Shown here piece by piece: positions 31,068-45,186 of a stretch of 64,000 nt of DNA. The notes under the pieces are model-generated. The model made no database searches. It worked only from the letters and a program-made list of their open reading frames with translations, and had not been told where the DNA came from. Each line of letters starts with the position of its first letter. Position 1 is the stretch's first letter. The stretch is taken from positions 333,856 through 397,855 of the forward strand of contig DAIMCS010000001.1 in assembly GCA_036726225.1 (NCBI GenBank). Reading direction: 5' to 3'. This stretch comes from Patescibacteria group bacterium (GTDB lineage Bacteria > Patescibacteriota > Doudnabacteria > UBA920). The position numbers were made by a program, and so were the translations under genes.

Positions 31068-31331
31068 TTATTTTAGATATTCCTTCATCATCTGCCTTAA
31101 TGTAACTTTGCCTTTAGTCGTTTTGAAGTACCGTTCTCTTCTTAGCGCGTCAGTTTTAGATAAAAATGCTTCGTAAAAGATAAGCTCTAAAGGTCTGCGG
31201 TTTTTAGTTGAAATATTTTTTCCTACATTATGGTACTGGATCCTAACTCTAAGATCGTCAGAGTATCCAATATAAAACAGCCTGTCTCTAAGGCTGCGTA
31301 AAATATAAACGTAATGAAATTTTATTGGCAT
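31068..31331 (-). CDS. small GIY-YIG nuclease family protein
   Basis: YVYILRSLRDRLFYIGYSDDLRVRIQYHN...ERYFK matches the GIY-YIG motif pattern. 87 aa. Confidence 0.65.
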   Translation of the reverse strand: MPIKFHYVYILRSLRDRLFYIGYSDDLRVRIQYHNVGKNISTKNRRPLELIFYEAFLSKTDALRRERYFKTTKGKVTLRQMMKEYLK

Positions 31332-31450
31332 TTGTTTATCTCTCCCTTTTTTGCCCTGTACCAGTCAGCTGCGCTTTCCGGTACAGGGCATAAACCACTC
31401 GCCTAACTATGTTTATGGCTGTGCCATAAACCCGAGCGAAGCGAGTGGTT

Positions 31451-31528
31451 TATGGTGGGATGGGAGGGGATCGAACCCTCGACAAACGGCTTAAAAGGCC
31501 GCTGCTCTACCAACTGAGCTACCATCCC
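31451..31528 (-). tRNA. tRNA-Lys (anticodon UUU), CCA encoded; apparently 2 nt longer than canonical between the D and anticodon arms
   Basis: Reverse complement reads GGGATGGTAGCTCAGTTGGTAGAGCAGCGCGGCCTTTTAAGCCGTTTGTCGAGGGTTCGATCCCCTCCCATCCCACCA. The acceptor, D and T arms are canonical and the anticodon loop is CTTTTAA. Confidence 0.7.
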
Positions 31529-31866
31529 GCGTCGTCGCAACAAGCTTCAGGCTTTCGGAATTAACTTAAGTTAATTCCTTACGCCTTTCGCTGTTGCTCC
31601 TCTTCCTCAAAAACGCGTGCTCGTCCCGACATGTCGGGACTGCGCTACTCGTTTTTGAGGGTTGATTAACTAGTGCCTTCCGGCAAGTGGGCCTTATCCC
31701 ACTTTTCCCTTTGGTAAAATTGGGAACCCTGCTAACATTTTATCCCAACACCGCCTTCAGCATTTTTGGGAGTCTGGTGTGGCCTTAATCAAAGTCTATG
31801 ATATTTTACAATATTCGACTGATTTTTTCAATAGCGCTTAGTATTATCCACATTCATTTGAAAATA

Positions 31867-31875
31867 TGGTATAAT
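31867..31875 (+). promoter_or_regulatory. extended -10 promoter element TGGTATAAT upstream of the prepilin gene
   Basis: TGnTATAAT lies 32 nt upstream of the ATG (31907). The ribosome-binding site GAGGGG follows. Confidence 0.4.
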
Positions 31876-31906: not shown

Positions 31907-32428
31907 ATGTTGAAACAAAAAATCAAACACAAAAAATTGAAAAAATACCCGAATCTTACCCAGACAACACCTAACGGCGCTTCCGGGTTTACTTTAATTG
32001 AATTGCTCGTGGTAATTGCCATTATTTCATTGCTATCGGCCATTGCTTTAGTGGCTTTGCAGTCCAGCAGGCAAAAGGGCAGGGATGTGAAAAGATTGAG
32101 CGATATGACCCAAATGGCCACGGCAATGGAACTTTATTTTAACACCCACAAAGGCTATCCAAGCTACCCGACAGACCTGGTACCCAACTTTACTTCGGGC
32201 ATGGTTACCGACCCGATACCCGCTGACGGCGCTTGCCCCAACCTTATTTACCCGCTTACTTCCGAAATAGCCGACAGCTATTATTATTACCCGAGTCCTA
32301 CCGGCGGGTCTTACGTAATAGACGGTGTGACAGTGTTCCCGGACTATTTGTACTATTTTTGTTTAGGCAACGTAACCGGCAGCTTTCCGCCGGGCATTCA
32401 CTACATTTCGCCCAGAGGTGTAAGATAA
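31907..32428 (+). CDS. prepilin-type N-terminal cleavage/methylation domain protein (type IV pilin/pseudopilin-like)
   Basis: GASGFTLIELLVVIAIISLLSAIALVAL is a class III signal peptide with the G|FTLIEL motif. Confidence 0.75.
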   Translation: MLKQKIKHKKLKKYPNLTQTTPNGASGFTLIELLVVIAIISLLSAIALVALQSSRQKGRDVKRLSDMTQMATAMELYFNTHKGYPSYPTDLVPNFTSGMVTDPIPADGACPNLIYPLTSEIADSYYYYPSPTGGSYVIDGVTVFPDYLYYFCLGNVTGSFPPGIHYISPRGVR

Positions 32429-32439
32429 TTAAAATCTTA

Positions 32440-32466
32440 ACACCCCTCCGTGGAGGGGTGTTTTTT
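32440..32466 (+). terminator. intrinsic terminator (10-bp perfect stem plus T6)
   Basis: ACACCCCTCCgtGGAGGGGTGTtttttt, immediately after the prepilin stop codon. Confidence 0.75.
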
Positions 32467-32493
32467 ATTGGTAGAAACATTATAATAGTGAAG

Positions 32494-33960
32494 ATGGATC
32501 AATTGAAAGAAATAAAACAGGCCATTTATAAAAAAAGGCCAAAATTGAAAAGAATTATAGACAACAATAAGAGTTTGTCAGTTTTAGATTATGTTCAGGA
32601 TATCATTGTTAATAGTAATAAAGTGTTAGAAGCACGACAAGAAGAAATTTTAGAAGTTATAAGACAGGTTGTGAAAGAATCGTTGGGAGATAGTGTTGCT
32701 TTAAGTGTAAAAGAACAGCTAAAAAAATATTACACGGTTTCTACTGCTGACCATCACGGGCCTTTAATGCACCCTTTTTTTATAAGTTCTAATCTAATAC
32801 AAGGCTGTATAAAAAAAGATGGTTATGAAAATGTTGTTGTTTTGGCATGCGGAAGTATCTCCTTAAATAATTCATCTTACCCCCGTGGATTGATTGCTCA
32901 TATACCAACCAACAGTGGAATTTCTACAGAACATTTTCCACTGTTTCCATGGTCTTTGAGGCAAAGCCCAGTTTTAACACTAAAAGCTTATTCTCATCAA
33001 CAGGTTGACAGTATGTTGCGGTCATTATCAGATAAGCTAAAAAGATCTAGTTTACCCAATGAATTACAACAAGTTTTTTTGGAGAAGGTACAGAGGATTT
33101 ATGCCTCTGACCAAGTTCTAAGTCGTAAATATTTTTCAGAGCAGGTAACAATAACTAATTTTAAACTTTGGAAGGAATTTCCTTCCTATAACGATGACAA
33201 AATACCAAATTTAATTTATTTGGAGCTAGAAGAAATTGTCAGTAGGTTATTATTGAAGTATCATTTATTCCAAGACACTGAAATTAGTAAATTATTTTTT
33301 GACTCCCGCATTCAAGAGAGCTTAATGGAGTTTGCAAACAAAATTCCTGGGGCTTTCTCTTTGGAAGATACTGCAGGCAGTTTTTTATTTTGGGGAGTTG
33401 ATAAAAAAAATAAAAAAAGAGTTTCACTTTGGAAGGCAGGAGATCAATTGGAGTCTTTGGACAAAAGCTTTTTCATTAAGTTAGAACAGGAGGGTTTGGC
33501 AAAAGCATTGTCCGAAAAGAGCATTATTCCGACTTCATTGCTGTGTTTTTTTGTTTTATGTTCTTATTATAAGTTAAAGTGCTTAGGGGGCTTTAGCCAA
33601 ACTACTTATTTGCCTCAAATGTTAGACGCTTATTCAAAAATATTCCAACAAACTAGTATAGATACCCAAAACAAAAGCTTAGCTGAAGGATTTTGTTCTG
33701 ACATGCTTTTGGCTTACGGATCTAACGCAAAAAATGAGATTCTGCCCCTTTATGGGTTAGATATTCTAGCTTATAGTAAGAAAGAGTTTTGGCCTTCATT
33801 CGAAAAAACGGCGGAAAGGTTGCATTTAGAAGAAGCTGTAATGCCTTTATTACCCGATCTTTATAAAATATTGTACTCAGAGCGGAGTGATCTAAAAATA
33901 GAGCAAATTGTCAGAAACCAGTTATTAGTAAATAAAATTGTCCCATGTCTGCAAATTTAA
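32494..33960 (+). CDS. hypothetical 489-aa protein of unknown function. Start taken at MDQLKE; the ORF-track start 32233 overlaps the pilin gene and the terminator
   Basis: A -10 TATAAT at 32481 and an ATG at 32494 are consistent with this start. No family recognised (it contains ...YYTVSTADHHGPLMHPFFISSNLIQG...). It overlaps the next gene by 16 nt, which suggests translational coupling. Confidence 0.55.
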   Translation: MDQLKEIKQAIYKKRPKLKRIIDNNKSLSVLDYVQDIIVNSNKVLEARQEEILEVIRQVVKESLGDSVALSVKEQLKKYYTVSTADHHGPLMHPFFISSNLIQGCIKKDGYENVVVLACGSISLNNSSYPRGLIAHIPTNSGISTEHFPLFPWSLRQSPVLTLKAYSHQQVDSMLRSLSDKLKRSSLPNELQQVFLEKVQRIYASDQVLSRKYFSEQVTITNFKLWKEFPSYNDDKIPNLIYLELEEIVSRLLLKYHLFQDTEISKLFFDSRIQESLMEFANKIPGAFSLEDTAGSFLFWGVDKKNKKRVSLWKAGDQLESLDKSFFIKLEQEGLAKALSEKSIIPTSLLCFFVLCSYYKLKCLGGFSQTTYLPQMLDAYSKIFQQTSIDTQNKSLAEGFCSDMLLAYGSNAKNEILPLYGLDILAYSKKEFWPSFEKTAERLHLEEAVMPLLPDLYKILYSERSDLKIEQIVRNQLLVNKIVPCLQI

Positions 33961-34703
33961 TTAAATTTTATAAGTATTCCCCAGGAGGCAATATCACTGC
34001 TTTAATATTGGGTTCAAAGAGTCCTAAGGAGAATTCTCGCGTTGCACGGAAGGTAATGAAAAGTGAAAAGGAAGTTGAGCAGGTGGCTTTTTTAAACCCT
34101 AAACTCGGTAATAAAATTTTTTTGCGTATGATGGGTAATGAGTTCTGTTTGAACGCAGCTCGAGTAGCTGGGGCTTATTATTTTGATAAAACTAAGAAAA
34201 CAGTTGTAAAAATTCAAGTGTCGGGTTTTGCAAAAGCTTTAGAAATAAATAAAAAACCGGGCAATATAATTTCAGCTAGGGTGCCGATGCAAATTTTAAA
34301 GAGAAATAATCAATTAGAAAAAGGCTGGTTAGTTGAGTTGGAAGGGATTAAATATTTTATAGGGTTCAATCTTAAAAATTTTGAAAAAGATATGAGGGGA
34401 ATCATAAAAGCATACAAGCGGAATAGCCCCGCCATGGGCGTAATTAATGTTTTTAAAAATGAAAATTTATATTTTATAAAGCCTGTGGTATGGGTAAAAC
34501 TTACAAATTCTTTGACTCACGAAACAGCTTGTGCTTCAGGTAGTGTTGCAGTGGCTTTAGTATTGAAGCAGATTGAGAAAAAGAAAAGTTATTTTTCTTT
34601 AATTCAACCGAGCGGGGTATCCTACAAAATTAACTTGTCAAAAAAATATGTCACTGTTAGTAGCAGGGTTAAGAATATGGGTATCAAACAAATTACGGCT
34701 TGA
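33945..34703 (+). CDS. DapF-fold protein (diaminopimelate epimerase/PhzF/proline-racemase superfamily), possibly dapF
   Basis: The second catalytic-Cys motif THETACASGSVAVALV parallels DapF GETQACGSGACAAVAV. The first half, GGNITALIL...MMGNEFCLNAARVAGAYYF, loosely parallels GLGNDFMVVD...CGNGARCFARF. Confidence 0.45.
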   Translation: MSANLIKFYKYSPGGNITALILGSKSPKENSRVARKVMKSEKEVEQVAFLNPKLGNKIFLRMMGNEFCLNAARVAGAYYFDKTKKTVVKIQVSGFAKALEINKKPGNIISARVPMQILKRNNQLEKGWLVELEGIKYFIGFNLKNFEKDMRGIIKAYKRNSPAMGVINVFKNENLYFIKPVVWVKLTNSLTHETACASGSVAVALVLKQIEKKKSYFSLIQPSGVSYKINLSKKYVTVSSRVKNMGIKQITA

Positions 34704-34748
34704 TATAATTAGCATGCTAAGTTAGAATATTTAAATAAGATACATTTT

Positions 34749-35468
34749 GTGGCAAATTTAATTAAAATCGCGAATTTAAAGAAAGACTATAAAAATGATG
34801 ATGTAATTACGCCTGTGCTCCACGGCGTGTCTTTTTCTATAGACGCCGGCGAATTTGTGGCCATAATGGGACCTTCGGGCTCGGGCAAGTCTACCTTAAT
34901 GCACATTTTAAGTTTTTTGGACCGTCCCACGGCCGGGCTTTACGAATTTAAAGGCAAAAATACCAAAGAGTTTGCAGACGAATATTTAGCCGAGCTGCGC
35001 AACACCGAAGTCGGTTTTGTTTTTCAAAGTTTTAATTTGCTTGCCAGAACCACGGTTTTAGATAACGTAAAACTGCCGCTTATTTACAGTAAGAAAAAAA
35101 ACCACGACGAACTCGCCAAAAGAGCTTTGGATGCTGTTGGCCTGTCTCACCGCCTAAATTATTTTACCAATCAAATTTCCGGCGGTGAAAAACAGCGCGT
35201 GGCTATTGCCCGGGCTTTAGTAAATGACCCGGCGGTAATTTTTGCAGACGAGCCCACCGGCAATTTGGATTCCAGAAGCGGCAATATTGTTATGGAGATT
35301 TTACAGAAATTAAACGAACAAGGCCGCACAATCATCCTTGTCACTCACGAACAGGACACGGCTAACCACGCTAAAAGAATTATCCGCCTTAAAGACGGCA
35401 ATATTGTGAGTGATGAGAAGGTTACTAATCGTACTATTGCGACAGATGGCAAAGTCCTTGTGAAATAA
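34749..35468 (+). CDS. ABC transporter ATP-binding protein, MacB/LolD/FtsE-like
   Basis: Walker [11 protein letters not shown]-loop, signature [15 protein letters not shown] and Walker [12 protein letters not shown]. Confidence 0.85.
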
Positions 35469-35476
35469 AAGTTTAT

Positions 35477-35500
35477 GGCGCGGTACTCAAGGCCCGCGCC
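35477..35500. terminator. GC hairpin GGCGCGG-N10-CCGCGCC between convergent genes (no clear U-run)
   Basis: A 7-bp perfect stem lies between the ABC ATPase stop and the stop of the - strand small gene. Confidence 0.3.
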
Positions 35501-35511
35501 ACGGTTTGATG

Positions 35512-35715
35512 TTATGAAATCTCCTCCTTTAGGGCAATTGCTGCGATTAGGCAAATGGTGCCAAAGGCGCCGGCAGAAAGATATCCTATTACGCCTGCTG
35601 CCTGTTTAAGCCAAACGGCCCAGTTAATACAGGCTAAGACCACAGGGTGCAAAGCGTAAGCCAGCGTCATCAAAGCTAATAGAAAACATCCGTACATCAG
35701 TGCCTTCTTTGTCAT
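35512..35715 (-). CDS. small two-transmembrane protein encoded antisense between the ABC ATPase and permease genes
   Basis: Reverse strand reads ACGGAGGGAAGCA ATG ACA AAG AAG GCA, giving MTKKALMYGCFLLALMTLAYALHPVVLACINWAVWLKQAAGVIGYLSAGAFGTICLIAAIALKEEIS. The Shine-Dalgarno GGAGGG is 6 nt upstream. Confidence 0.45.
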   Translation of the reverse strand: MTKKALMYGCFLLALMTLAYALHPVVLACINWAVWLKQAAGVIGYLSAGAFGTICLIAAIALKEEIS

Positions 35716-35762
35716 TGCTTCCCTCCGTAATTATTATAGTGTCTTTGTTAGTTTTATCCAAG

Positions 35763-37034
35763 ATGAATTTTCTCAGCACAATTAAACTGGTATTCCGCAC
35801 ATTGCTTGCCAGAAAAGGCAGGTCGTTTTTAACCATTTTAGGAATTGTTATTGGCGTGGCCGGGGTAATCATAATCATCGCTTTAGGGGCCGGTGCGCAG
35901 TCATTAGTTTTAGGGCAAGTTACCAAGCTCGGATCCAACTTGCTTTACGTTGAACCCTGGAAAGGTGACCCCAACGGCCCGCCCAGCCAGCTTTTTGGGC
36001 TGGTAATTACCACCTTAACCAGTGAGGACGCGCAGGCCCTTCGTGACACTTCCAGGGTGCCGCACGCAGAAGCAGTCAATGCTTCGGTTATTGGTTCGGC
36101 TACAGTTGCGTGGGGCTCTGAAAGTGTGGACACAAATTTTACCGGGACAGATTACAATTATCCTAAAATAATTAACTTCACCATGCGCAGAGGGGATTTT
36201 TTTTCGGAAAGCGAGGAGCGGGGTAATGCTAACGTTGTGGTGCTCGGTTCGGTTGTGGCCGACGAACTCTTTGGGCCCTCAGGTCAAGATCCTGTCGGGC
36301 AGGTTGTGAAAGTAAAAAGTTCTTCGCAAAAAGATCCAGGAGGAATACCGTTGCGGGTTGTGGGGGTAATTAACGAACGCGGCAGCGCTTTTTTCCAAAA
36401 CCAGGATGATTTTATTTTTATGCCGCTTGAAATTGCCCAAAAGCAAATTTTGGGAATTAATTATTTGCAAGGCATAGGCATAAAGGTGGACCGGGCCGAA
36501 AATGTGGACCAGACAAGCGAGGATATAAGTGCTCTTATGAAGGAACGGCACCATATTTTAGAGGAGGAAGATTTGGACTTTACCATAAGAAACCAAGCCG
36601 AAGCCATAAGTATTTTTAGCTCAATTACCAGCGCTTTGAGTTTGTTTTTGACAGCGATGGCGGCCATTTCATTAATTGTCGGCGGCATTGGCATTTTAAA
36701 TATTATGATGGTCACAGTTGCCGAGCGCACGAGGGAAATTGGCCTGCGCAAAGCGGTCGGCGCTTCCAACTCCGCTATCCGTAACCAATTTTTGCTCGAG
36801 TCCGGGACCCTGACGCTTTTGGGGGGAGTAATTGGCATTATTGTCGGCATAATTGTCTCCTACCTTGTTTCTATTTTAATGAAAGCTTTGGGTTATGATT
36901 GGGCGTTTGTTGTTTCTGTTTTATCAATTATTTTGGCGGTGGGTGTTTCCATTTTAACCGGCGTGGTGTTTGGGCTGTATCCGGCTTTTAAGGCCTCACG
37001 CCTAAACCCCATTGAGGCGCTAAGATATGAATAG
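35763..37034 (+). CDS. ABC transporter permease, MacB/FtsX family with a large periplasmic domain (start at MNFLST)
   Basis: An N-terminal transmembrane helix, then a MacB-like periplasmic core, then the FtsX 3-TM module ...GGIGILNIMMVTVAERTREIGLRKAVGA... Confidence 0.8.
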   Translation: MNFLSTIKLVFRTLLARKGRSFLTILGIVIGVAGVIIIIALGAGAQSLVLGQVTKLGSNLLYVEPWKGDPNGPPSQLFGLVITTLTSEDAQALRDTSRVPHAEAVNASVIGSATVAWGSESVDTNFTGTDYNYPKIINFTMRRGDFFSESEERGNANVVVLGSVVADELFGPSGQDPVGQVVKVKSSSQKDPGGIPLRVVGVINERGSAFFQNQDDFIFMPLEIAQKQILGINYLQGIGIKVDRAENVDQTSEDISALMKERHHILEEEDLDFTIRNQAEAISIFSSITSALSLFLTAMAAISLIVGGIGILNIMMVTVAERTREIGLRKAVGASNSAIRNQFLLESGTLTLLGGVIGIIVGIIVSYLVSILMKALGYDWAFVVSVLSIILAVGVSILTGVVFGLYPAFKASRLNPIEALRYE

Positions 37035-38514
37035 AGAAAGATCATCCGAATTTAATAAGCCGGAGCAAATCACACCTCATAGCGAGCCGACATCCGAGAC
37101 TGGAAAAAATTTGCTGGAGGTTTTAAATCAAATAAAAAATTATCTTGACGCTTGCGATGGGTTGCTAAAAAAACCGTCATTGGATCAGGAAGAACTTAAA
37201 GTTTTTCGTAGCTTATATGAGAAAGTATTTGAATTGCAATTTGAAACTTTTGATTTTTTTAATCCGCATTCAGAACTTGCGCAATCTTTAAACCAAAGGG
37301 TCTCGGCAATTGAAGCAGTGCTTATTCATAAATTAACCGAATCGGCATCTGTTAAGGCATTAGATAATTTAGGAGTGGATTTATTAAATTACTTGAGTTA
37401 TTCAAATAATAGTGAAATCGCAAAAAAAGCAATGACAATTCTTGACCGGGATTTTGAAACTTTTATGGCGAGCAAAACAACGCCGCAGGGTAATCTTAAT
37501 GCAATTTATGAGATATCAAGCGCGATAGTGGCCAATGGGTCTGCAAAAGAACAGGCAAGAGTAGAGAAAGTATTGGCAGGGTCCGCTGCCCAAAATTCCG
37601 ATATGAAAGATTTGGATGTTCTTTTAATCCCTCATTTTCTAACTAACCATTCCCGTCAGGTCAGGAATTTGGGCGTGAAGATTTTTGAAAAAATTTGCCA
37701 AGAGATAGATTTGCCTCCTAAAAACACAAGAGAGGCTTGGATAGCTAATACTGACCTTCCGAGGAGAAGTATGCCATCCTCCATAAAAAGAGCCGACAGA
37801 GAGATATTTATGAATGTTTTTTATTCGAATATGCGTTCAGTCAAAAATTTAGAGTCTGTTCAGCCGGGCATTTGCAGGGATTTGTATCAAAAGTTCGGAG
37901 TGCTTAATTTCGGAAGGTTTGATGATAAGGTTTGGCTTGCTCAAAAAGCAGAAGAAAATGACATGCGGCCATATGTTTTAGTCATAAGCGGTCAAGCGGA
38001 TTGGAATGCGGCATCTTTTGAGCCGGAAAGCAGGCGAACTTATTCAAATTTGTTTGCAGCTTTGTCGGGTAAATTTCCCTTGCGGATTCTAGAAGTTGGG
38101 GATAAACTCCAACTTGCTAAATTAATCCGGTATCTCAAGTCTAAATATTCCAATAATCCAGCCGCGGTAGTCTTTAGCGGACACAATAAAAAAGAATTTA
38201 TTTTAGGAGAGTCGCGTAGAGGCAGAAGGTATTTTAAGAATTTTTTAACCGAAACAACCTTAACTGACCCGCGAGCGGAGAAATATCTGGATATAGCCGA
38301 TCAAGACACGGTTTTCGTATTTGATTCCTGTGGTGTGGACAGGAGCAATACTTTTGCCAGTAAGCTTATTTCAAAAGCCGGTAAACAAGTAATCTTTCCC
38401 GATGGGGATTCATCGGTGGAAGAATTTAATCCTGAAATTTTGTCCGACGGAAGTATATCTTTCGATAAAATAAAATACGGTTTTGATGTTAAAACCGTCA
38501 ATTTGCACAAATAA
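37027..38514 (+). CDS. hypothetical protein: N-terminal helical domain plus a C-terminal domain with a clan-CD (caspase/CHAT-like) His-Cys signature
   Basis: The C-terminal region reads ...PYVLVISGQADWNA...AAVVFSGHNKKEFILG...DTVFVFDSCGVDRS... This is a hydrophobic strand followed by SGH, then a hydrophobic strand followed by DxC, which is the classic order for clan CD peptidases. It overlaps the upstream permease by 8 nt. Confidence 0.35.
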   Translation: MNRERSSEFNKPEQITPHSEPTSETGKNLLEVLNQIKNYLDACDGLLKKPSLDQEELKVFRSLYEKVFELQFETFDFFNPHSELAQSLNQRVSAIEAVLIHKLTESASVKALDNLGVDLLNYLSYSNNSEIAKKAMTILDRDFETFMASKTTPQGNLNAIYEISSAIVANGSAKEQARVEKVLAGSAAQNSDMKDLDVLLIPHFLTNHSRQVRNLGVKIFEKICQEIDLPPKNTREAWIANTDLPRRSMPSSIKRADREIFMNVFYSNMRSVKNLESVQPGICRDLYQKFGVLNFGRFDDKVWLAQKAEENDMRPYVLVISGQADWNAASFEPESRRTYSNLFAALSGKFPLRILEVGDKLQLAKLIRYLKSKYSNNPAAVVFSGHNKKEFILGESRRGRRYFKNFLTETTLTDPRAEKYLDIADQDTVFVFDSCGVDRSNTFASKLISKAGKQVIFPDGDSSVEEFNPEILSDGSISFDKIKYGFDVKTVNLHK

Positions 38515-38603
38515 AACATTTTATGTTGACTTCCTTTCAACAATCCATTAAAGCGCCTCGTTGACAATAGGGTAATGAGTTAAAGTTTAAAAAATTTATT
38601 ATT

Positions 38604-39848
38604 ATGTGGACATCAGTTAGACAAGCTGTAGCTGCGCTGCGCGCGAATTTAGTTAGGACAATCCTAACCACTCTTGGCATTGTTATTGGCATTGCCACCA
38701 TCATCCTTGTGCTTTCGGCAGGCGCAGGTTTTCGGCAAATTGTAAACAACCAAATTGCATCTTTAGGCACCAATACTCTGGTAATTGCCACGCGCGTCCC
38801 TCCCACCACCAAAAACCGCGCCGCTGCCAACAACGGCCCGGATTTTAACATCACGGTGGCTATCACCTCTTTAAAAATGAAAGATTTGGAAGATGTAAAA
38901 CGGCTGCCTAACGTTACCAATGCCTACGGCATTGCGGTCAGCCAGGGCGTGGCAAGCTATAAACAGAACAAAAAGAATACAATGTTCATTGGCGTCTCTG
39001 TTGAACGTTTCGAAATTGACAAAGGCACATTAAAAGAAGGGAGATTTTTTACTGACGGCGAGGACAAAGGCGCGGCCCAAGTCGCGGTCTTAGGTTCCCA
39101 GGTTGCCGACGATTTGTTTGACCAGGACAATCCGGTAGGCAAGTATATGCGCCTTGGGACTTTGAATTTTTTGGTAATCGGCGTTTACAATTCACGCGGC
39201 GGCCCTGTTGGCGGAGGGGACGACGGTATTTACATCCCGCTGGTAACAACGCAAAAAAAACTTTTAGGCATTGACCATATTGCCAGGGGCGTGGTGGAAA
39301 TGAGAGATTTAAATTTAGCCCAAGCCACGGCCGAAGACATTAGGATTGTTATTAGGCAAAACCACGACATCCAGGACCCGCAGCGGGACGATTTTACTGT
39401 TGCCACCCAGGCCGACGTTTTAGGGACTTTAAATACAATTTTTAACGGCATTACCATCCTTTTAGTTGCCATTGCCGCCATTTCTTTAATTGTCGGCGGG
39501 GTAGGCATTATGAATATTATGTATGTTGTTGTCACCGAGCGCACGGCGGAGATAGGCCTTAAAAAAGCCTTAGGCGCAACCAACTCCAGAATTTTAAGCG
39601 AGTTTTTAATTGAAGCAATTTTAGTCACGGTTTTAGGCGGTATTATTGGCATTGGTTTAGGCGCGTTTTTGGGCTGGGCAGTATCTGTTGTGGCCAACGC
39701 GTTTAATTTAGGCTGGGAGTTTATTGTCCCGCTTTATTCCATATTGTTAGGAGTCGGCGTTTCGGGGGCGATTGGCATAGTTTTTGGAGTGCTGCCCGCC
39801 CGCCAGGCCTCTAAGTTAGACCCCATTGAAGCTCTAAGGTACGAATAA
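38604..39848 (+). CDS. second ABC transporter permease, MacB/FtsX family
   Basis: Same architecture as the 35763 gene; ...GGVGIMNIMYVVVTERTAEIGLKKALGA...LDPIEALRYE is the same C-terminus. Confidence 0.8.
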   Translation: MWTSVRQAVAALRANLVRTILTTLGIVIGIATIILVLSAGAGFRQIVNNQIASLGTNTLVIATRVPPTTKNRAAANNGPDFNITVAITSLKMKDLEDVKRLPNVTNAYGIAVSQGVASYKQNKKNTMFIGVSVERFEIDKGTLKEGRFFTDGEDKGAAQVAVLGSQVADDLFDQDNPVGKYMRLGTLNFLVIGVYNSRGGPVGGGDDGIYIPLVTTQKKLLGIDHIARGVVEMRDLNLAQATAEDIRIVIRQNHDIQDPQRDDFTVATQADVLGTLNTIFNGITILLVAIAAISLIVGGVGIMNIMYVVVTERTAEIGLKKALGATNSRILSEFLIEAILVTVLGGIIGIGLGAFLGWAVSVVANAFNLGWEFIVPLYSILLGVGVSGAIGIVFGVLPARQASKLDPIEALRYE

Positions 39849-39917: not shown

Positions 39918-41147
39918 ATGATCAACATTGTAATTTTGGGAGCAGGTTTTGCAGGTGTTATAGCCGCGCTTAAGCTGTCTAAAAAAATCGGCTACCAGGC
40001 GAACATTACTCTCATTGACAGGCACGACTACCATCTTTTCACCACTAATTTATACGAGATAGCCGCTTCCGAAGAGGAATTAAACACCCTTGCCCAGCTC
40101 AAAAAAAGTATTACACTGCCTTTGGCAGAAATTTTTTTGGGCCACAAAGTTAATGTTATCAAAGCGGAAATCCGGGAAGTTAATGCAGAAGCTAAAACCG
40201 TTACTGCCGGAATAAAAAAAATTAAATACGATTATTTGGTAATTGCTCCCGGCTCGGTAAGTGATTATTTTGATATTGAGGGAGCGCAAAAGTTTGCTTT
40301 GCCTTTAAAAAATTTGACCGACGCTTTTAATATTCGGAACCAGGTTGAGTTTGCAGTCCAAAGGCAAAGAATGGAAATGAAGAAAAAAAATATTCGCATC
40401 GTGGTTGCCGGAGGGGGTTACACCGGAGTGGAAGTTGCCGGCGAGCTCACCCAACTGCTGGATGTGCTTGCCTGGAAATATGAATACCCTAAGGAAAATA
40501 TGGAAGTCGTTGTCATTGAAGCCGCGCCGGAACTTGTGCCGGGGCTTTCCCCGCGCTTGAGCGCCGATGCCCACGGAAGATTGCGCGACTTAGGCGCGCG
40601 AATTTTGCTTTCCAGCCCGATTGCAAAAATTGACGAGCATCACGTTGAATTTAATAACGCAGACAGGATGGAGTATGATGTTTTAATTTGGGCAGCCGGG
40701 GTTAAGGCGGCCAATTTGCCTTTTGCCCAGGCTTTAGAAAAAGACAAAAAGGGCAGAATTTTAGCCAACGAATTTTTACAAGCCAGGGAATTTTCAAATG
40801 TTTTTGTGTTGGGGGATGGCGCCTCCATAAACAACCGTGACGGCAGGCCTGCCCCGCCAACTGCGCAAGACGCTATTGAGCAGGCAAAATATTTAGCTTA
40901 CGCTTTGCCTTTAATTATGCAAAATAAAAGGCCAAAAATTGCTTATGCGGGCAAGGCCCACGGCTACATTGTGAGCATTGGCGGCAAATGGGGAATTTTA
41001 AATTACGGCGGATTTTATTTTACAGGCTGGCTTGCTTACTTTGTGCGCCAGTTGGCCAATATAAATTATTTCAGGCAACTCGTGGGCTTATGGAAAGCTA
41101 TAAAGTATGTTTTGTTCCAAATGGAAATGTACAGCAGGAATGACTAA
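39918..41147 (+). CDS. FAD/NAD(P)-dependent pyridine-nucleotide disulfide oxidoreductase, type II NADH dehydrogenase (NDH-2)-like
   Basis: Two Rossmann motifs, IVILGAGFAGVIAA and IVVAGGGYTGVEVAGEL. 409 aa. Confidence 0.65.
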   Translation: MINIVILGAGFAGVIAALKLSKKIGYQANITLIDRHDYHLFTTNLYEIAASEEELNTLAQLKKSITLPLAEIFLGHKVNVIKAEIREVNAEAKTVTAGIKKIKYDYLVIAPGSVSDYFDIEGAQKFALPLKNLTDAFNIRNQVEFAVQRQRMEMKKKNIRIVVAGGGYTGVEVAGELTQLLDVLAWKYEYPKENMEVVVIEAAPELVPGLSPRLSADAHGRLRDLGARILLSSPIAKIDEHHVEFNNADRMEYDVLIWAAGVKAANLPFAQALEKDKKGRILANEFLQAREFSNVFVLGDGASINNRDGRPAPPTAQDAIEQAKYLAYALPLIMQNKRPKIAYAGKAHGYIVSIGGKWGILNYGGFYFTGWLAYFVRQLANINYFRQLVGLWKAIKYVLFQMEMYSRND

Positions 41148-41200: not shown

Positions 41201-42814
41201 TTATACCGGTCTGGGAGGAGAGGGAATGTTGGGCAATATTTTGTGTTCCCGTAAATGCCTAAAGAAGCGCACCAGCATCATTATCCCAAAGGCCAAAATA
41301 ATTAACACTAACACAGAAAATATAACCGCGTTAGTTAGGTGCTGCTGGTAAAAAATTCTAAATACATCCCAGGCAGAGTCTTTGGACTGTTTGTCGGCAA
41401 TTAAACTTTCACATTCGGAAATGGGTTTTTTAAGCTGGTCTTTAACCGGGAAATGCAAATTAACACTGCTGGCTGCGGCATTAAAATAATCCAAAGCTTG
41501 TTTACAAACGCTGTTTTTTTGGCTGGCTAAACCTAACAGTAGGTTTAAACGGTAGGGGCCCGGTTCATTTTTTATATTATTTTTTTCCAGAATTTCTTTA
41601 GCCAGTTCTACAGGCAGGGCAAACCCAAAATTATCCCCGTCTACTCTGGCGCCGGTTTCAAAAGTAATAATGCCAATAACGTTTCCACCCCTGTCAATTA
41701 GCGGGCCGCCGCTTGAGCCCGGGGAAATTTTATTATCCAGCTGGATAATTTTTTGGCCTTCGTGGGTTTTTATGGCGCTAAGCGCGCCTTCGGTAAAAGT
41801 GGCTTCAAAAAGGTCGGCTTGGCTAATTTTGGCGTTGGAAGGGTAGCCTAAGCTTATTGCTTTTTCTCCAATTACCAAACTTTCACTGCTTCCCAAAAGC
41901 AAAGCGGGCAGGTTTTTTTCCGAAATTTTAATGAGAGCCACATCTTTATAGTTGGTTTCAAAATCTTCGTCAAAATCCACTATGGTAACAGGCAGGCCGG
42001 TTTCAAAAACTTCGGCAAGTTCCGAGTTTTCGGTCAGTTTGTTGTCTGCCATGGACTTGTCTATTACAACCAAGCTTTGTTTAACCAAATCTTCCAAATG
42101 GGCTTCCACGAATTTGTCAATTTCCGCGTACAGGGCGTCTGCAATTTTTGCATCGCTCTGGGCGCTGGCCACACCATAAACGGAATCTAAATAATTTTGG
42201 TAGGCTTTATATTCCTTATCGCTTAAATTGTCTTGAGCCTGTTTAAAAAGTTCGGCATAATGGGTTTCCACCTCTTTGGTCATTTGGTCGTAAGCCGAGG
42301 TTTTAGCTATTACATGGGCGTTGGTAATTATGTAGCCGTCCGGGTTTACCACAAAGCCGCTGCCTAAAAGCCCCGTGTCCACGTCTATTACGTGCTTGGG
42401 CAGGTCGTCCCTGGGGGTTAGGGCAAAAGTTTTTAAGTCCACGTTAAAGTCGGGTATGGCCAGGCTGCCGGTTAAAGAATTTATAATATTAACCACGCCG
42501 GGTTTGTTTAAAAAAATAGCCTGCTCCTGCGTAAGCTCGTCAAGATTCAAACTTTCAGTTTTGGCTCCTAAAACTTGAGGGATAGTTTTTTGCTCAGGCA
42601 AAAAAGCAACTCGACGGTCATGGCTGCTTTGCGTAGGTTTAATTCTGGGCTGCCAGCTAATTCTTGCCTGCGCAGTTTTTGCGTGCGGTTTATAAGTGAA
42701 GTTTTCAGCTTTGGTTTGTGTAAGTTCCGGGCCAAAATTGGTCACAACAAAAAAAGCAAAGGCCCAACTAGCTATGGAGACTAATGCTGCTGCAGAAACT
42801 AATAATTTTTTCAT
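41201..42814 (-). CDS. trypsin-like serine protease (S1C/HtrA-like) with an N-terminal signal peptide and a C-terminal transmembrane anchor. Start at MKKLLVSAAAL; the ORF-track N-terminal extension would overlap topA
   Basis: The catalytic triad context is His TNAHV, Asp DVALIKI and Ser GSSGGPLIDRGGNVIGI. The signal peptide is MKKLLVSAAALVSIASWAFA. Confidence 0.75.
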   Translation of the reverse strand: MKKLLVSAAALVSIASWAFAFFVVTNFGPELTQTKAENFTYKPHAKTAQARISWQPRIKPTQSSHDRRVAFLPEQKTIPQVLGAKTESLNLDELTQEQAIFLNKPGVVNIINSLTGSLAIPDFNVDLKTFALTPRDDLPKHVIDVDTGLLGSGFVVNPDGYIITNAHVIAKTSAYDQMTKEVETHYAELFKQAQDNLSDKEYKAYQNYLDSVYGVASAQSDAKIADALYAEIDKFVEAHLEDLVKQSLVVIDKSMADNKLTENSELAEVFETGLPVTIVDFDEDFETNYKDVALIKISEKNLPALLLGSSESLVIGEKAISLGYPSNAKISQADLFEATFTEGALSAIKTHEGQKIIQLDNKISPGSSGGPLIDRGGNVIGIITFETGARVDGDNFGFALPVELAKEILEKNNIKNEPGPYRLNLLLGLASQKNSVCKQALDYFNAAASSVNLHFPVKDQLKKPISECESLIADKQSKDSAWDVFRIFYQQHLTNAVIFSVLVLIILAFGIMMLVRFFRHLREHKILPNIPSPPRPV

Positions 42815-42903
42815 TTGTATTTTTATTTCAAAAGCTTTTCTAACTTGTATATTATTATAGCAGAAATTGGGAAATTTTGCAAGTAATAAAAAAAACTTCA
42901 GAG

Positions 42904-45186
42904 TTATTCTGAAGTTTTTTTCTTGGCATAAGATTTTTTGGGTTTGGGTGGGTTGGCTTTCCAATCTTCGAATGCTTTTTGTAATTGTTCCTGGCTTTCC
43001 GGTTTTGCGTTCATAACAAAAGTGCAGTCCGGGAAACGGGTACAAGCAAAAAAAGCTTTACCGCGGCCGCGGGATTTTTTCTCCACAATGTCACCCGGTT
43101 TTTCTTTACGTTCGTCCGTAGCCAGGCAGTTGGGGCATTTGTAGCCGGTCTTGTTCCAAATTTTAGAAATGCCTTTGCATTTTGGGTAATCTTGGCAGCC
43201 CAGGAAAAAGCCAAAACGGCCGCGGCGTACGTTCATTTGTTTGCCGCAAATAGGGCACATTTCGCCTCTGGTTTTTTCTTCCAGTTCCTTTATTTTTGCC
43301 GCTTCCTCGGGCATTGGCTGAGTAATTTTGCTTTCCGGGTCGGGGCAAGCCAGGAATTTTCCGTTGCGCCCGTACTTAATAAGCATCATTTTGCCGCAAT
43401 GGGAGCAGGGGACTTCGGAGACTTCAATTTGCTTTTCCACGCTTTTTTCTTTTTCAATCAAATGCTTTTTAAACGGGTCATAAAATTCCTGCATAACTTT
43501 AACCCACTTTATATTGCCGGCTGCAATTTCATCCAGTTCTTCTTCTATGTGCGAGGTAAAATTAATGTCAACAATTTCCGGGAAATTTTCAACCAGCATA
43601 TCATTAACCAAAAAACCTTCCTCTGTGGGGGAATATTTTTTATCAACCTTGTTCACATAACCCCTGTCCTGGATGGTGGAAAGGGTGGGGGCGTAGGTGG
43701 AAGGGCGGCCAACACCGGCAGCTTCCAGGGCTTTTATTAAAGTGGCATCGCTATAGCGTGCCGGAGGCTCGGTAAAATGCTGGAGTGGGCTAAGTTCGTG
43801 CAGTTTTAATTTTTCATCCACGGAAAGTTCCGGCAGCACGCCTTCAATTTCGTCCTCGGCCTTTTCGTCCTGGCCTTCAGTGTAGGCGCGAATAAAACCG
43901 TCGAATTTAATAGTTTGACCGTTGGCCCGAAACATATATTTATCTTTGGCCAAAATATCGGCCGCAGTTTGTTCTAAAACTGCCGGCGCCATTTGGCAGG
44001 CAACAGTGCGTTTCCAAATAAGGTCGTAAATTTTAAACTGACCGCGGTCCAAAAATTCTTTAATGTCGGAAGGTTTTTTTAAGACATCGGCCGGGCGGAT
44101 GGCTTCGTGGGCTTCTTGGGCGCCTTTGGATTTGTTGGTAAAGGTGCGCGGTTCGTCTAAAGCATATTTGTCACCGAACTCCGACTTAACCACGTCAGCA
44201 ATAGCAGCCAAAGCAGACTGGGCTAAGTTTAAACTGTCTGTTCTCATATAGGTAATAAGCCCTTGGTGGCCTTCGTCTCCCAATTTTATGCCTTCGTAAA
44301 GTTGTTGGGCAATAACCATGGTTTGCTTTGCGGACATACCGAACTTGCGCGCGGCTTCTTGCTGCAGGGTAGAGGTAATAAACGGGGCGGCAGGGTTTCT
44401 TTTTACTTCCTTAGTATTTATTTCTTTAATTTGATATTCCGCGCCTTTAAGGTCGTCAACAATTTTTTTTGCGTTCGTTTCTGCGTTAATGTCCATCTTG
44501 CCTACGGACTTGTCGTCTATCTTTGCAAGTTTTGCAACAAAAGTTTTGTCGTCTTTGAGTTTGGAAAGCTGCGCTTCTATGCTCCAGTATTCTTCTTGTT
44601 TAAAGTTTTGGATTTCGCGTTCGCGTTCAACAACCAAGCGAACAGCTACCGACTGCACGCGTCCGGCCGAAAGCCCGTATCTTATTTTGCGCCACAAAAA
44701 AGGCGAAAGTTCGTAGCCCACCAATCTATCCAGCACTCGTCTGGCTTGCTGCGCGTCCACTAAGTTAAGGTCCAAATCGCGCGGGTTTTTCATGGCTTCG
44801 TCTATGGCGGACTTGGTTATTTCGTGGAAAACTATGCGTTTTATGCGCCTGTCTTCTTTGCCTTTGGCAATTTGGGCTTCATCGCCCAAGTCCAATGCCT
44901 GCACCAAATGCCAGGAAATGGCCTCACCTTCGCGGTCCTCGTCAGTGGCCAATATAATAGAAGGGGCGCCTTTGGCGTCCTGTTTAAGTTCGGCTATTAT
45001 TTCTTTGGCTTTGGGCGGAATAATATAGACAGGCTCAAAGTCATTTTTTACATCAATGGATATTTTAGATTTTGGTAAATCGCGGACGTGTCCCATACTG
45101 GCTTTTACAATGTATTGTCCGCCCAAAAAACGCGAAATGGTTTTCGCTTTTGTAGGTGATTCTACTATTATTAGGGGCTTGGACAT
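42904..45186 (-). CDS. topA: DNA topoisomerase I
   Basis: TOPRIM N-terminus MSKPLIIVESPTKAKTISRFLGG and an active-site Tyr region. C-terminal zinc-ribbon repeats (CSHCGKMM, CPICGKQM, CPNC). Confidence 0.95.
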   Translation of the reverse strand: MSKPLIIVESPTKAKTISRFLGGQYIVKASMGHVRDLPKSKISIDVKNDFEPVYIIPPKAKEIIAELKQDAKGAPSIILATDEDREGEAISWHLVQALDLGDEAQIAKGKEDRRIKRIVFHEITKSAIDEAMKNPRDLDLNLVDAQQARRVLDRLVGYELSPFLWRKIRYGLSAGRVQSVAVRLVVEREREIQNFKQEEYWSIEAQLSKLKDDKTFVAKLAKIDDKSVGKMDINAETNAKKIVDDLKGAEYQIKEINTKEVKRNPAAPFITSTLQQEAARKFGMSAKQTMVIAQQLYEGIKLGDEGHQGLITYMRTDSLNLAQSALAAIADVVKSEFGDKYALDEPRTFTNKSKGAQEAHEAIRPADVLKKPSDIKEFLDRGQFKIYDLIWKRTVACQMAPAVLEQTAADILAKDKYMFRANGQTIKFDGFIRAYTEGQDEKAEDEIEGVLPELSVDEKLKLHELSPLQHFTEPPARYSDATLIKALEAAGVGRPSTYAPTLSTIQDRGYVNKVDKKYSPTEEGFLVNDMLVENFPEIVDINFTSHIEEELDEIAAGNIKWVKVMQEFYDPFKKHLIEKEKSVEKQIEVSEVPCSHCGKMMLIKYGRNGKFLACPDPESKITQPMPEEAAKIKELEEKTRGEMCPICGKQMNVRRGRFGFFLGCQDYPKCKGISKIWNKTGYKCPNCLATDERKEKPGDIVEKKSRGRGKAFFACTRFPDCTFVMNAKPESQEQLQKAFEDWKANPPKPKKSYAKKKTSE

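Follow-up and report, generated by a model that had tools for sequence, protein, structure and literature searches.

Organization of the block and its counterparts in related genomes

The present study analyzed a block of genes at positions 31,907 to 39,848 of a 64-kb stretch of contig DAIMCS010000001.1 (the whole stretch is hereafter called the window) from a Patescibacteria group bacterium. The block encodes a type IV prepilin-like protein, the "489-aa protein" (p489), a two-Cys racemase of 252 aa, a MacB-type ATP-binding cassette (ABC) exporter with one ATPase and two permeases, and a 495-aa protein (p495) whose gene lies between the two permease genes (Table 1). The open reading frame (ORF) map placed the eight co-directional genes described in the initial annotation of this DNA as given there, with overlaps of 16 nt between the p489 and racemase genes (33945–33960) and 8 nt between the permease 1 and p495 genes (37027–37034). 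On the same map, only 45 nt separate the racemase stop from the ATPase start, and the p489 gene sits within a longer ORF opening at 32233. The small antisense gene with two transmembrane (TM) segments between the ATPase and permease 1 genes was also found, and identical gene calls, including this 67-aa ORF, were obtained on four independent soil-metagenome contigs carrying this sequence. The only conserved pair in the block consists of p489 and the racemase, and this real conserved unit had been treated as background in the initial annotation.

Table 1. Positions in the window of the genes and signals of the block, with the basis of each assignment.
Feature	Position	Strand	Basis
Type IV prepilin-like gene, 173 aa	31907-32428	+	Pfam N_methyl, NCBIfam IV_pilin_GFxxxE
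Intrinsic terminator (predicted)	32439-32462	+	Hairpin and T-run, folding energy
p489, 488 aa, BshC-like / class I aminoacyl-tRNA synthetase-like fold	32494-33960	+	AlphaFold2 model, Foldseek
HisR/CntK-like two-Cys racemase, 252 aa	33945-34703	+	NCBIfam, PDB, Pfam CntK_N
MacB/LolD-type ABC ATPase, 239 aa	34749-35468	+	ABC_tran, MacB, LolD
GC-rich hairpin, possible bidirectional terminator	35476-35501	none	Folding; inference only
67-aa hydrophobic ORF, about two TM segments, lineage-specific	35512-35715	-	ORF map, gene callers
MacB-type permease 1, 423 aa from the ATG at 35763	35700/35763-37034	+	MacB_PCD, FtsX
p495, helical N-terminal half and clan-CD-like C-terminal domain (probable)	37027-38514	+	Conservation, weak profile matches
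MacB-type permease 2, 414 aa	38604-39848	+	MacB_PCD, FtsX

For comparison, 80 genome loci encoding p489 relatives (~17 kb each) were fetched and searched with every protein of the block. The p489 homologues and related loci are nearly all labelled as Patescibacteria, or Candidate Phyla Radiation (CPR), including Peregrinibacteria, Peribacteria, Magasanikbacteria, Kerfeldbacteria, and others. The closest relatives are the three loci L078, L052, and L040, which have the flanking genes in common but differ in the interior of the block. In L078, the prepilin gene is followed by p489, ~2.9 kb of inserted DNA, the ATPase, permease 1, permease 2, and a gene for a flavoprotein (ndh), with no racemase gene; L052 shows the same series except that a racemase gene comes after p489 and the inserted DNA measures ~2.2 kb; and in L040 the order is prepilin, p489, racemase, and ndh, the exporter being absent. 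Among the 80 loci, the prepilin gene adjoins p489 only in these three. Since the interior varies in all three, the block is not one conserved module, and we hold with moderate confidence that it is a mosaic in which four or more independent units meet: the prepilin, p489 with the racemase, the MacB-type exporter, and p495.

The Pfam and NCBIfam searches bore out a MacB-type ATPase and two FtsX/MacB permeases with the 495-aa gene between them. The ATPase (ABC_tran 4.6e-33; MacB 1e-72; LolD 1.5e-70) is 78–83% identical to those of L078 and L052, permease 1 (MacB_PCD 5.2e-43; FtsX 2.2e-20) is 70–71% identical to its counterparts there, and permease 2 (MacB_PCD 2.8e-36; FtsX 3.2e-20) is 57–61% identical. 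An ABC ATPase and a four-TM permease with a MacB periplasmic core and an FtsX domain, which define the MacB-type (type VII) class, are thus both present. In L052, permease 2 (L052:14605-15855) matches as three pieces in different frames, as would result from frameshifts (a pseudogene) or from errors of assembly.

In L078 and L052, the permease genes are adjacent, 98–121 nt apart, with no p495 gene between them, and no more than ~112 nt part the ATPase and permease genes, whereas in the window this space holds the 67-aa gene. No homologue of p495 was found in any of 83 loci, and none of the 67-aa protein in 83 related loci. In both L078 and L052, the insert carries, directly 5′ of the ATPase gene, a gene for a membrane-fusion adaptor of the HlyD family (Pfam HlyD_D23 1.3e-17), and a tblastn search of the 64-kb window with the L078 adaptor found none (best E = 0.57). 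Between the racemase and HlyD adaptor genes of L052 (L052:10423-10731), a 102-aa AbrB/MazE-like protein is encoded (Pfam MazE_antitoxin, E = 0.0022).

Based on the adjacency of the permease genes and the adaptor in these relatives, the ancestral exporter would have been an ordinary MacAB/YknXYZ-like four-gene unit composed of the HlyD adaptor, ATPase, permease, and permease, and the window exporter would have lost the adaptor and gained two foreign genes, the 67-aa ORF and p495. The system resembles exporters of the MacAB, YknXYZ, and LolCDE types in its MacB/LolD-like ATPase, its two permeases with MacB_PCD and FtsX domains, and the adaptor in relatives; it differs from them in that the window has no adaptor, a convergent small gene stands between the ATPase gene and those of the permeases, and p495 parts the permeases.

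The transcription signals described here are calls from consensus matches and folding only. The prepilin motif reported earlier was recovered (Pfam N_methyl 1.2e-8; NCBIfam IV_pilin_GFxxxE, TIGR02532, 8.9e-8), with an N-terminal G-F-T-L-I-E class III signal/methylation motif followed by a hydrophobic helix. A promoter-like site lies 5′ of the prepilin gene at 31847–31875, and a strong putative terminator starts 10 nt past its stop codon, with a 10-bp stem, 6 of whose pairs are GC, ahead of TTTTTTATT; it folds at −17.5 kcal/mol (z = −2.7), and 1 of 200 shuffles folds equally well. With its own promoter-like site and terminator, the prepilin gene would be monocistronic.

The second hairpin has an 8-bp GC stem (−16 kcal/mol, a modest z = −1.44) with a T-rich tract on either side; it lies between the stop codons of the ATPase gene and of the convergent 67-aa ORF and is possibly a bidirectional terminator. 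Consensus matches to promoters are found 5′ of the ATPase, permease 1, and 67-aa genes. The 67-aa ORF has a Shine-Dalgarno sequence, GGAGGG, 5 nt 5′ of its ATG and a promoter-like TGGATA-16-TATAAT at 35760..35733, and this convergent gene for a membrane protein, with its own expression signals, would split the ATPase from the permease genes. The terminator past the prepilin gene and the hairpin past the ATPase gene suggest that the block is probably not a single transcript. On these signals, the block would comprise no fewer than three transcription units, one with the prepilin, one with p489, the racemase, and possibly the ATPase, and one with permease 1, p495, and permease 2.

The p489–racemase pair

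The initial annotation described the 252-aa protein as a DapF-fold protein with a Cys-Cys pair. The fold and both cysteines held, whereas the DapF identity did not, as the protein matched the NCBIfam models HisR (3.7e-22, 79.3 bits) and CntK (6.1e-19, 68.5 bits) but scored only 14.3 bits (E = 0.02) against the DapF model TIGR00652, for which the cut-off is 114.65. No Pfam DAP_epimerase match was found at E ≤ 0.1, the best PDB match was HisR (9cr1, 6.4e-16), and a precomputed Pfam CntK_N match exists. Both catalytic cysteines are retained: the only two Cys residues of the protein, C68 and C196, occupy the two positions that are catalytic in the DapF superfamily and align with C67 and C209 of HisR. 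In addition, E45, E66, and E193 align with HisR E49, E65, and E206, for which hydrogen bonds to the imidazole ring have been proposed (PMC11602996). The two Cys and the three Glu are all conserved in 12 of 12 CPR orthologues.

HisR of Fusobacterium nucleatum and CntK of Staphylococcus aureus are cofactor-independent histidine racemases of the DapF superfamily. The 252-aa protein is like them in fold, length, both catalytic Cys, and the three Glu proposed to contact the imidazole; unlike them, it is only ~25–30% identical, its host belongs to the CPR, and its partner is the BshC-like p489 rather than staphylopine cntLM or the Fusobacterium neighbours. By these sequence features, the protein is a HisR/CntK-like cofactor-independent two-Cys amino-acid racemase and not DapF, and its product is most likely D-histidine.

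For p489, 119 homologues were collected, nearly all from CPR, and none carries a Pfam domain. Searches of 43 family members found no match to Pfam BshC or any other family at E ≤ 1, except for NTP_transf_2 (E = 6e-4, just under the cut-off), which occurred in 1 of the 43 and was rejected as spurious; the family profile likewise found no match among PDB sequences. An AlphaFold2 (AF2) model built from the 43-sequence alignment (pLDDT 92.3, pTM 0.93) gave one significant Foldseek match in the PDB, namely BshC (4wbd; E = 3.1e-8, probability 1.0, TM-score 0.42/0.39), followed by the class I lysyl-tRNA synthetase 1irx (E = 0.1) and then TyrRS and GluRS. Remote homology was thus negative at the sequence level (Pfam and PDB) and, on the model, positive at the fold level, pointing to BshC and class I aminoacyl-tRNA synthetases (aaRS).

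Although p489 had been reported to have no recognisable motif, nine residues are invariant in the family: H87, N126, E246, F299, W300, G365, G366, Q369, and L373. The invariant H87-x-G89 (ADHHGP) follows the first core strand (81–85) and precedes the helix 94–104, that is, at the position of a HIGH-type motif; no KMSKS-like motif was recognised in p489. BshC, represented by PDB 4wbd, is the bacillithiol synthase or putative cysteine ligase. p489 is like BshC and class I aaRS, including MshC-type ligases, in overall fold and in size (~490–540 aa); unlike them, it shares no detectable sequence similarity with them (TM-score ~0.4), and, within the 64-kb window and the ~17-kb loci, it is linked to genes for the racemase, class IV aminotransferases, and ATP-grasp ligases, not to bshA/bshB. 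Its substrate is probably not cysteine. By analogy, we propose that p489 is an ATP-dependent amino-acid ligase; since the BshC reaction itself has never been reconstituted (PMC5790435), the label of ligase is an analogy. No description of the p489 or p495 family in CPR was found in the literature.

In 11 of the 80 loci, the gene immediately 3′ of p489 on the same strand is that of the racemase, never more than a few tens of nt away; on a neighbour-joining tree of the family, these 11 are spread over no fewer than five separate positions. A class IV aminotransferase (Aminotran_4 8.6e-47), a member of the family that includes D-amino-acid transaminases, is encoded near p489 in nine loci, and a cyanophycin-synthetase-like ATP-grasp ligase (PDB 7lg5, 5e-35) in six, with the order p489, racemase, ATP-grasp in L004 and L071. 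In L042, a homologue of the VanX-like M15 D-Ala-D-Ala dipeptidase follows the pair. The most distant p489 homologues (25–26% identity), in Marinobacterium jannaschii and on another proteobacterial contig, lie in a cassette with the order DapF-fold epimerase (DAP_epimerase 4.7e-20), major facilitator superfamily (MFS) transporter, p489 homologue, solute-binding proteins, and sensor kinases. In two phyla, therefore, genes of the p489 family are linked with racemases of the DapF superfamily, and the wider linkage is to enzymes making or ligating D-amino acids.

The proteobacterial cassettes (L094:6791-13822, Marinobacterium jannaschii JHVJ01000003.1; L095:3319-11307) encode epimerases of 379–420 aa and MFS transporters of 630–679 aa, and past the p489 homologue lie two PF04392 solute-binding proteins, a dCache hybrid histidine kinase, and a response regulator. 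Such a cassette looks like one for the synthesis, export, and sensing of a small molecule. Elsewhere, tandem or near-tandem p489 paralogues are present in 8 of the 80 loci (L008, L025, L032, L037, L046, L051, L072, and L082), with up to three copies in L008, and in two Peribacteria loci the pair is followed by an uncharacterised 351–366-aa protein with no Pfam match (L021:10522-11622; L044:4015-5070). A PBP-gene neighbourhood in eight p489 loci was discounted as independent linkage, as these loci form a single clade with identical synteny.

For the pair itself, p489 was found to have the fold, conserved residues, and gene linkage described above; its ligase chemistry and substrate we infer. 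In the proposed mechanism, the two genes would be translationally coupled through the 16-nt overlap, and the racemase would supply a D-amino acid, most likely D-histidine. With ATP, p489 would then activate this D-amino acid (or a partner acid) and ligate it to an amine or hydroxyl acceptor, and the product would be a small conjugate containing a D-amino acid or a modification of the cell envelope. Our tentative proposal is that p489 and the DapF-fold protein beside it constitute a pathway of two enzymes not recognised before, widespread in the CPR and present in some Proteobacteria, in which p489 attaches the racemase-derived D-amino acid, predicted to be D-histidine, and the product is a new exported small molecule or an envelope modification. 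The wiring of the proteobacterial core to an MFS exporter, solute-binding proteins, and sensor kinases suggests a signal or a metallophore.

The p495 family and the flanking DNA

p495 consists of a helical, poorly conserved N-terminal half and a C-terminal domain (C-domain) of about residues 255–495, in which His386 (codon 38182–38184) precedes Cys435 (codon 38329–38331) by 49 residues; the hydrophobic stretch AAVVF lies before H386 and TVFVF before C435, the prediction of strands here coming only from a low-confidence model (pLDDT 46). A word-indexed homologue search found only p495 itself, and an exhaustive phmmer search gave 710 cluster representatives at E ≤ 1e-3, mostly over residues 255–490. 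In 60 of 60 aligned homologues, E276, R297, D325, E356, H386, and C435 are invariant. The family consensus is a hydrophobic strand followed by GGHG and, further on, a hydrophobic strand followed by SCSTG; the window p495 has SGHN and DSCGVD at these places, with VVFSGH and FVFDSC present.

The full-length p495 profile against the PDB was dominated by helical-repeat designs, and trimming to the C-domain exposed matches to DUF4347 and CHAT proteins. Among 177,635 PDB sequences, the C-domain profile gave three matches, of which the top one was 9qpe_G (DUF4347, E = 0.019) and the third 8tl0_A (CHAT, E = 0.15), and the His and Cys of the family align with the His/Cys dyads of both. The structure 9qpe is that of Pseudomonas Tce1 (PA0256), a type VI secretion system (T6SS) effector with the proposed catalytic dyad His186/Cys240, whose top structural match is the cysteine protease domain of TcdB (PMC13323088). 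The aligned residues 77 and 131 of 9qpe_G, with an offset of 109, correspond to these His186 and Cys240. Against Pfam DUF4347, the best E-value of p495 members was 0.0014, with matches in 3 of 27 and 7 of 60 members, and single members weakly match Peptidase_C13 (0.028) and Peptidase_C25 (0.24). An hhalign comparison with a DUF4347 protein aligned the dyad (P = 1.8e-4, probability 48%), and one with caspase-3 placed the dyad on His121/Cys163 (P = 4.6e-4, probability 33%). A search for DUF4347 relatives returned only four sequences. Scans of the p495 C-domain with PADLOC and NCBIfam gave nothing meaningful, and p495 is therefore not a catalogued defence protease.

The initial annotation had read the SGH ... 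DxC order of p495 as a clan CD layout, and this reading is supported by the dyad invariant in all 60 aligned homologues and by weak but convergent profile matches. In the comparison of p495 with clan CD families, the alignment of the dyad with DUF4347/Tce1, CHAT, and caspase-3 stood and statistical significance was not reached. No match is significant alone, yet all point to clan CD. On sequence evidence, the C-domain is likely clan-CD-like, and it appears closest to DUF4347/Tce1 (C80-like) and CHAT proteins. Like DUF4347/Tce1, C80 (TcdB, MARTX), CHAT, and caspases (MEROPS clan CD), p495 has a His-then-Cys dyad, the two residues ~49 apart and each after a hydrophobic strand. It departs from these families by four further invariant residues (E276, R297, D325, and E356), by a conserved N-terminal extension of 55 residues, and by an N-terminal half that is helical and variable; it is encoded on CPR-like contigs, and a T6SS, CRISPR, or toxin context is absent.

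No signal peptide was found in the p495 sequence. Four sampled homologues lie on CPR-like contigs in unrelated housekeeping contexts, never beside ABC genes, which indicates that the family is not tied to exporters. In our interpretation, p495 would be a lineage-specific insertion between the permease genes and probably a cytoplasmic His/Cys protease acting apart from the exporter.

Beyond the block, on its left side, lies the gene for an 87-aa stand-alone GIY-YIG protein (31068–31331, minus strand), which is 79% identical to the L078 protein in the same position. The 575-nt gap between the GIY-YIG and prepilin genes holds a tRNA-Lys(UUU) on the minus strand (31453–31528), and the region 31340–31680 contains strong inverted repeats (31348–31394; 31549–31586), a perfect 14-nt inverted repeat (31389–31402/31441–31454), and an inverted repeat at 31605–31660 enclosing an inner palindrome (31623–31640). 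An Rfam search of this gap matched no family except tRNA. On the right, the type II NADH-dehydrogenase-like flavoprotein gene ndh (39918–41147, plus strand; Pyr_redox_2 7.9e-43) follows the block and, being syntenic in L078, L052, and L040, marks the right-hand boundary of the variable region. Farther on (41201–43045 and 42904–45186, both minus strand), the longest ORF of an HtrA-like Trypsin_2 protease would overlap the 3′ end of topA by ~140 nt; the gene callers give this protease 537 or 587 aa, and its start is uncertain.

Alternative readings and significance

Several observations weigh against the interpretation given above. For the pair, 69 of the 80 p489 loci have no adjacent racemase gene, and at the sequence level p489 resembles neither BshC nor any aaRS, the fold match being moderate (TM-score ~0.4). 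The racemase scores lie far below the NCBIfam equivalog cut-offs (79.3 against 400 bits for HisR; 68.5 against 300 for CntK); therefore, the protein is labelled HisR/CntK-like and D-histidine is given as a likely product only, as the substrate could differ. A different identity was proposed in the initial annotation, in which the 252-aa protein would be a DapF serving peptidoglycan synthesis, placed by chance beside a lipoprotein/macrolide-type exporter, with p489 unrelated. The two catalytic Cys in a DapF-superfamily fold fit this proposal, and the CntK entries in the PDB are themselves deposited as 'diaminopimelate epimerase'; however, the DapF model reaches only 14 bits against a cut-off of 115, compared with 79 and 68 bits for HisR and CntK, the three Glu proposed to bind histidine (PMC11602996) are kept in every orthologue aligned, and pairing of the racemase with p489 recurs in 11 loci from deep CPR lineages. 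We regard a peptidoglycan DapF as highly improbable.

For p495, the contrary points are that each clan CD match is individually non-significant (E = 0.0014–0.15; hhalign 33–48%) and below every Pfam gathering threshold, that the single-sequence AF2 model is poor (pLDDT 46) and returned only helical-repeat noise in Foldseek, and that the window p495 has Asn for the usual Gly after His and Asp for Gly three residues past Cys. All of this is in keeping with a His and Cys that belong to another alpha/beta fold, a non-proteolytic enzyme, or a pseudoenzyme. Such an origin would leave aside the spacing of 49 residues with a hydrophobic stretch before each member of the dyad, the fact that two of the three PDB profile matches are His/Cys proteases with the dyad aligned, and the independent weak matches to C13 and C25 together with the hhalign placement on H121/C163 of caspase-3, and we consider it unlikely. 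As for transcription and the independence of p495, the hairpin past the ATPase gene has a z of only −1.4, the promoter and terminator calls are consensus matches, and the 8-nt overlap with permease 1 suggests co-expression, so that p495 may be functionally tied to the exporter in this lineage.

The whole block was initially read as one processing-and-export operon, in which a clan CD protease would mature a secreted or pilin-like substrate and the MacB-type transporter would export it. The tight co-directional packing with its two overlaps and the clan-CD-like nature of p495 speak for such an operon, but it is already largely refuted by synteny, as the permease genes of the closest relatives are adjacent without p495 and L040 has no exporter at all. 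The terminator 3′ of the prepilin gene, the convergent gene that parts the ATPase from the permease genes, and p495 itself, with no signal peptide and with homologues in unrelated contexts, also stand against it; moreover, prepilins are normally processed by PilD-type aspartic peptidases. A single operon of this kind is very improbable. It is also conceivable, though we think it unlikely, that synthesis and export are joined without a protease: the pair would make a small molecule containing a D-amino acid (a signal, metallophore, or envelope precursor), the MacB-type transporter would export it, and the exporters would vary by lineage. The proteobacterial cassettes with their MFS transporter, solute-binding proteins, and sensor kinases, an MFS gene at +3 in L045, the position of the pair directly 5′ of the exporter in the window and in L052, and the 45-nt gap before the ATPase gene are consistent with this possibility. 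On the other side, L040 has the pair without any exporter and L078 has p489 and the exporter without the racemase, no exporter gene was recognised near the eight other racemase-carrying loci (11 minus L052, L040, and L045), and the exporter of the relatives brings its own adaptor as a self-contained MacAB/YknXYZ-type unit. A functional link between pair and exporter, drawn by analogy with the proteobacterial MFS cassettes, is not conserved among the closest relatives and remains doubtful; the mosaic of independent units is the reading we prefer.

The genomes of CPR/Patescibacteria are rich in conserved proteins of unknown function, and two such families are given testable assignments here. The p495 family comprises over 700 sequence clusters and seems to represent a novel branch of the clan CD cysteine hydrolases, akin to the Tce1/DUF4347 effectors of the T6SS described recently. 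With regard to genome organization, tight co-directional packing in small CPR genomes does not by itself mean one functional module, which bears on operon-style inference from CPR metagenomes. The p489 family gains a fold and repeatedly linked partners that handle D-amino acids or peptide ligation, and the pairing of a BshC-like protein with a HisR-like racemase is a candidate for a new D-amino-acid ligation pathway. The p489 hypothesis would place concrete biochemistry in organisms supposed to lack most biosynthesis, and p489 may also help to explain the BshC reaction, which is still unreconstituted.

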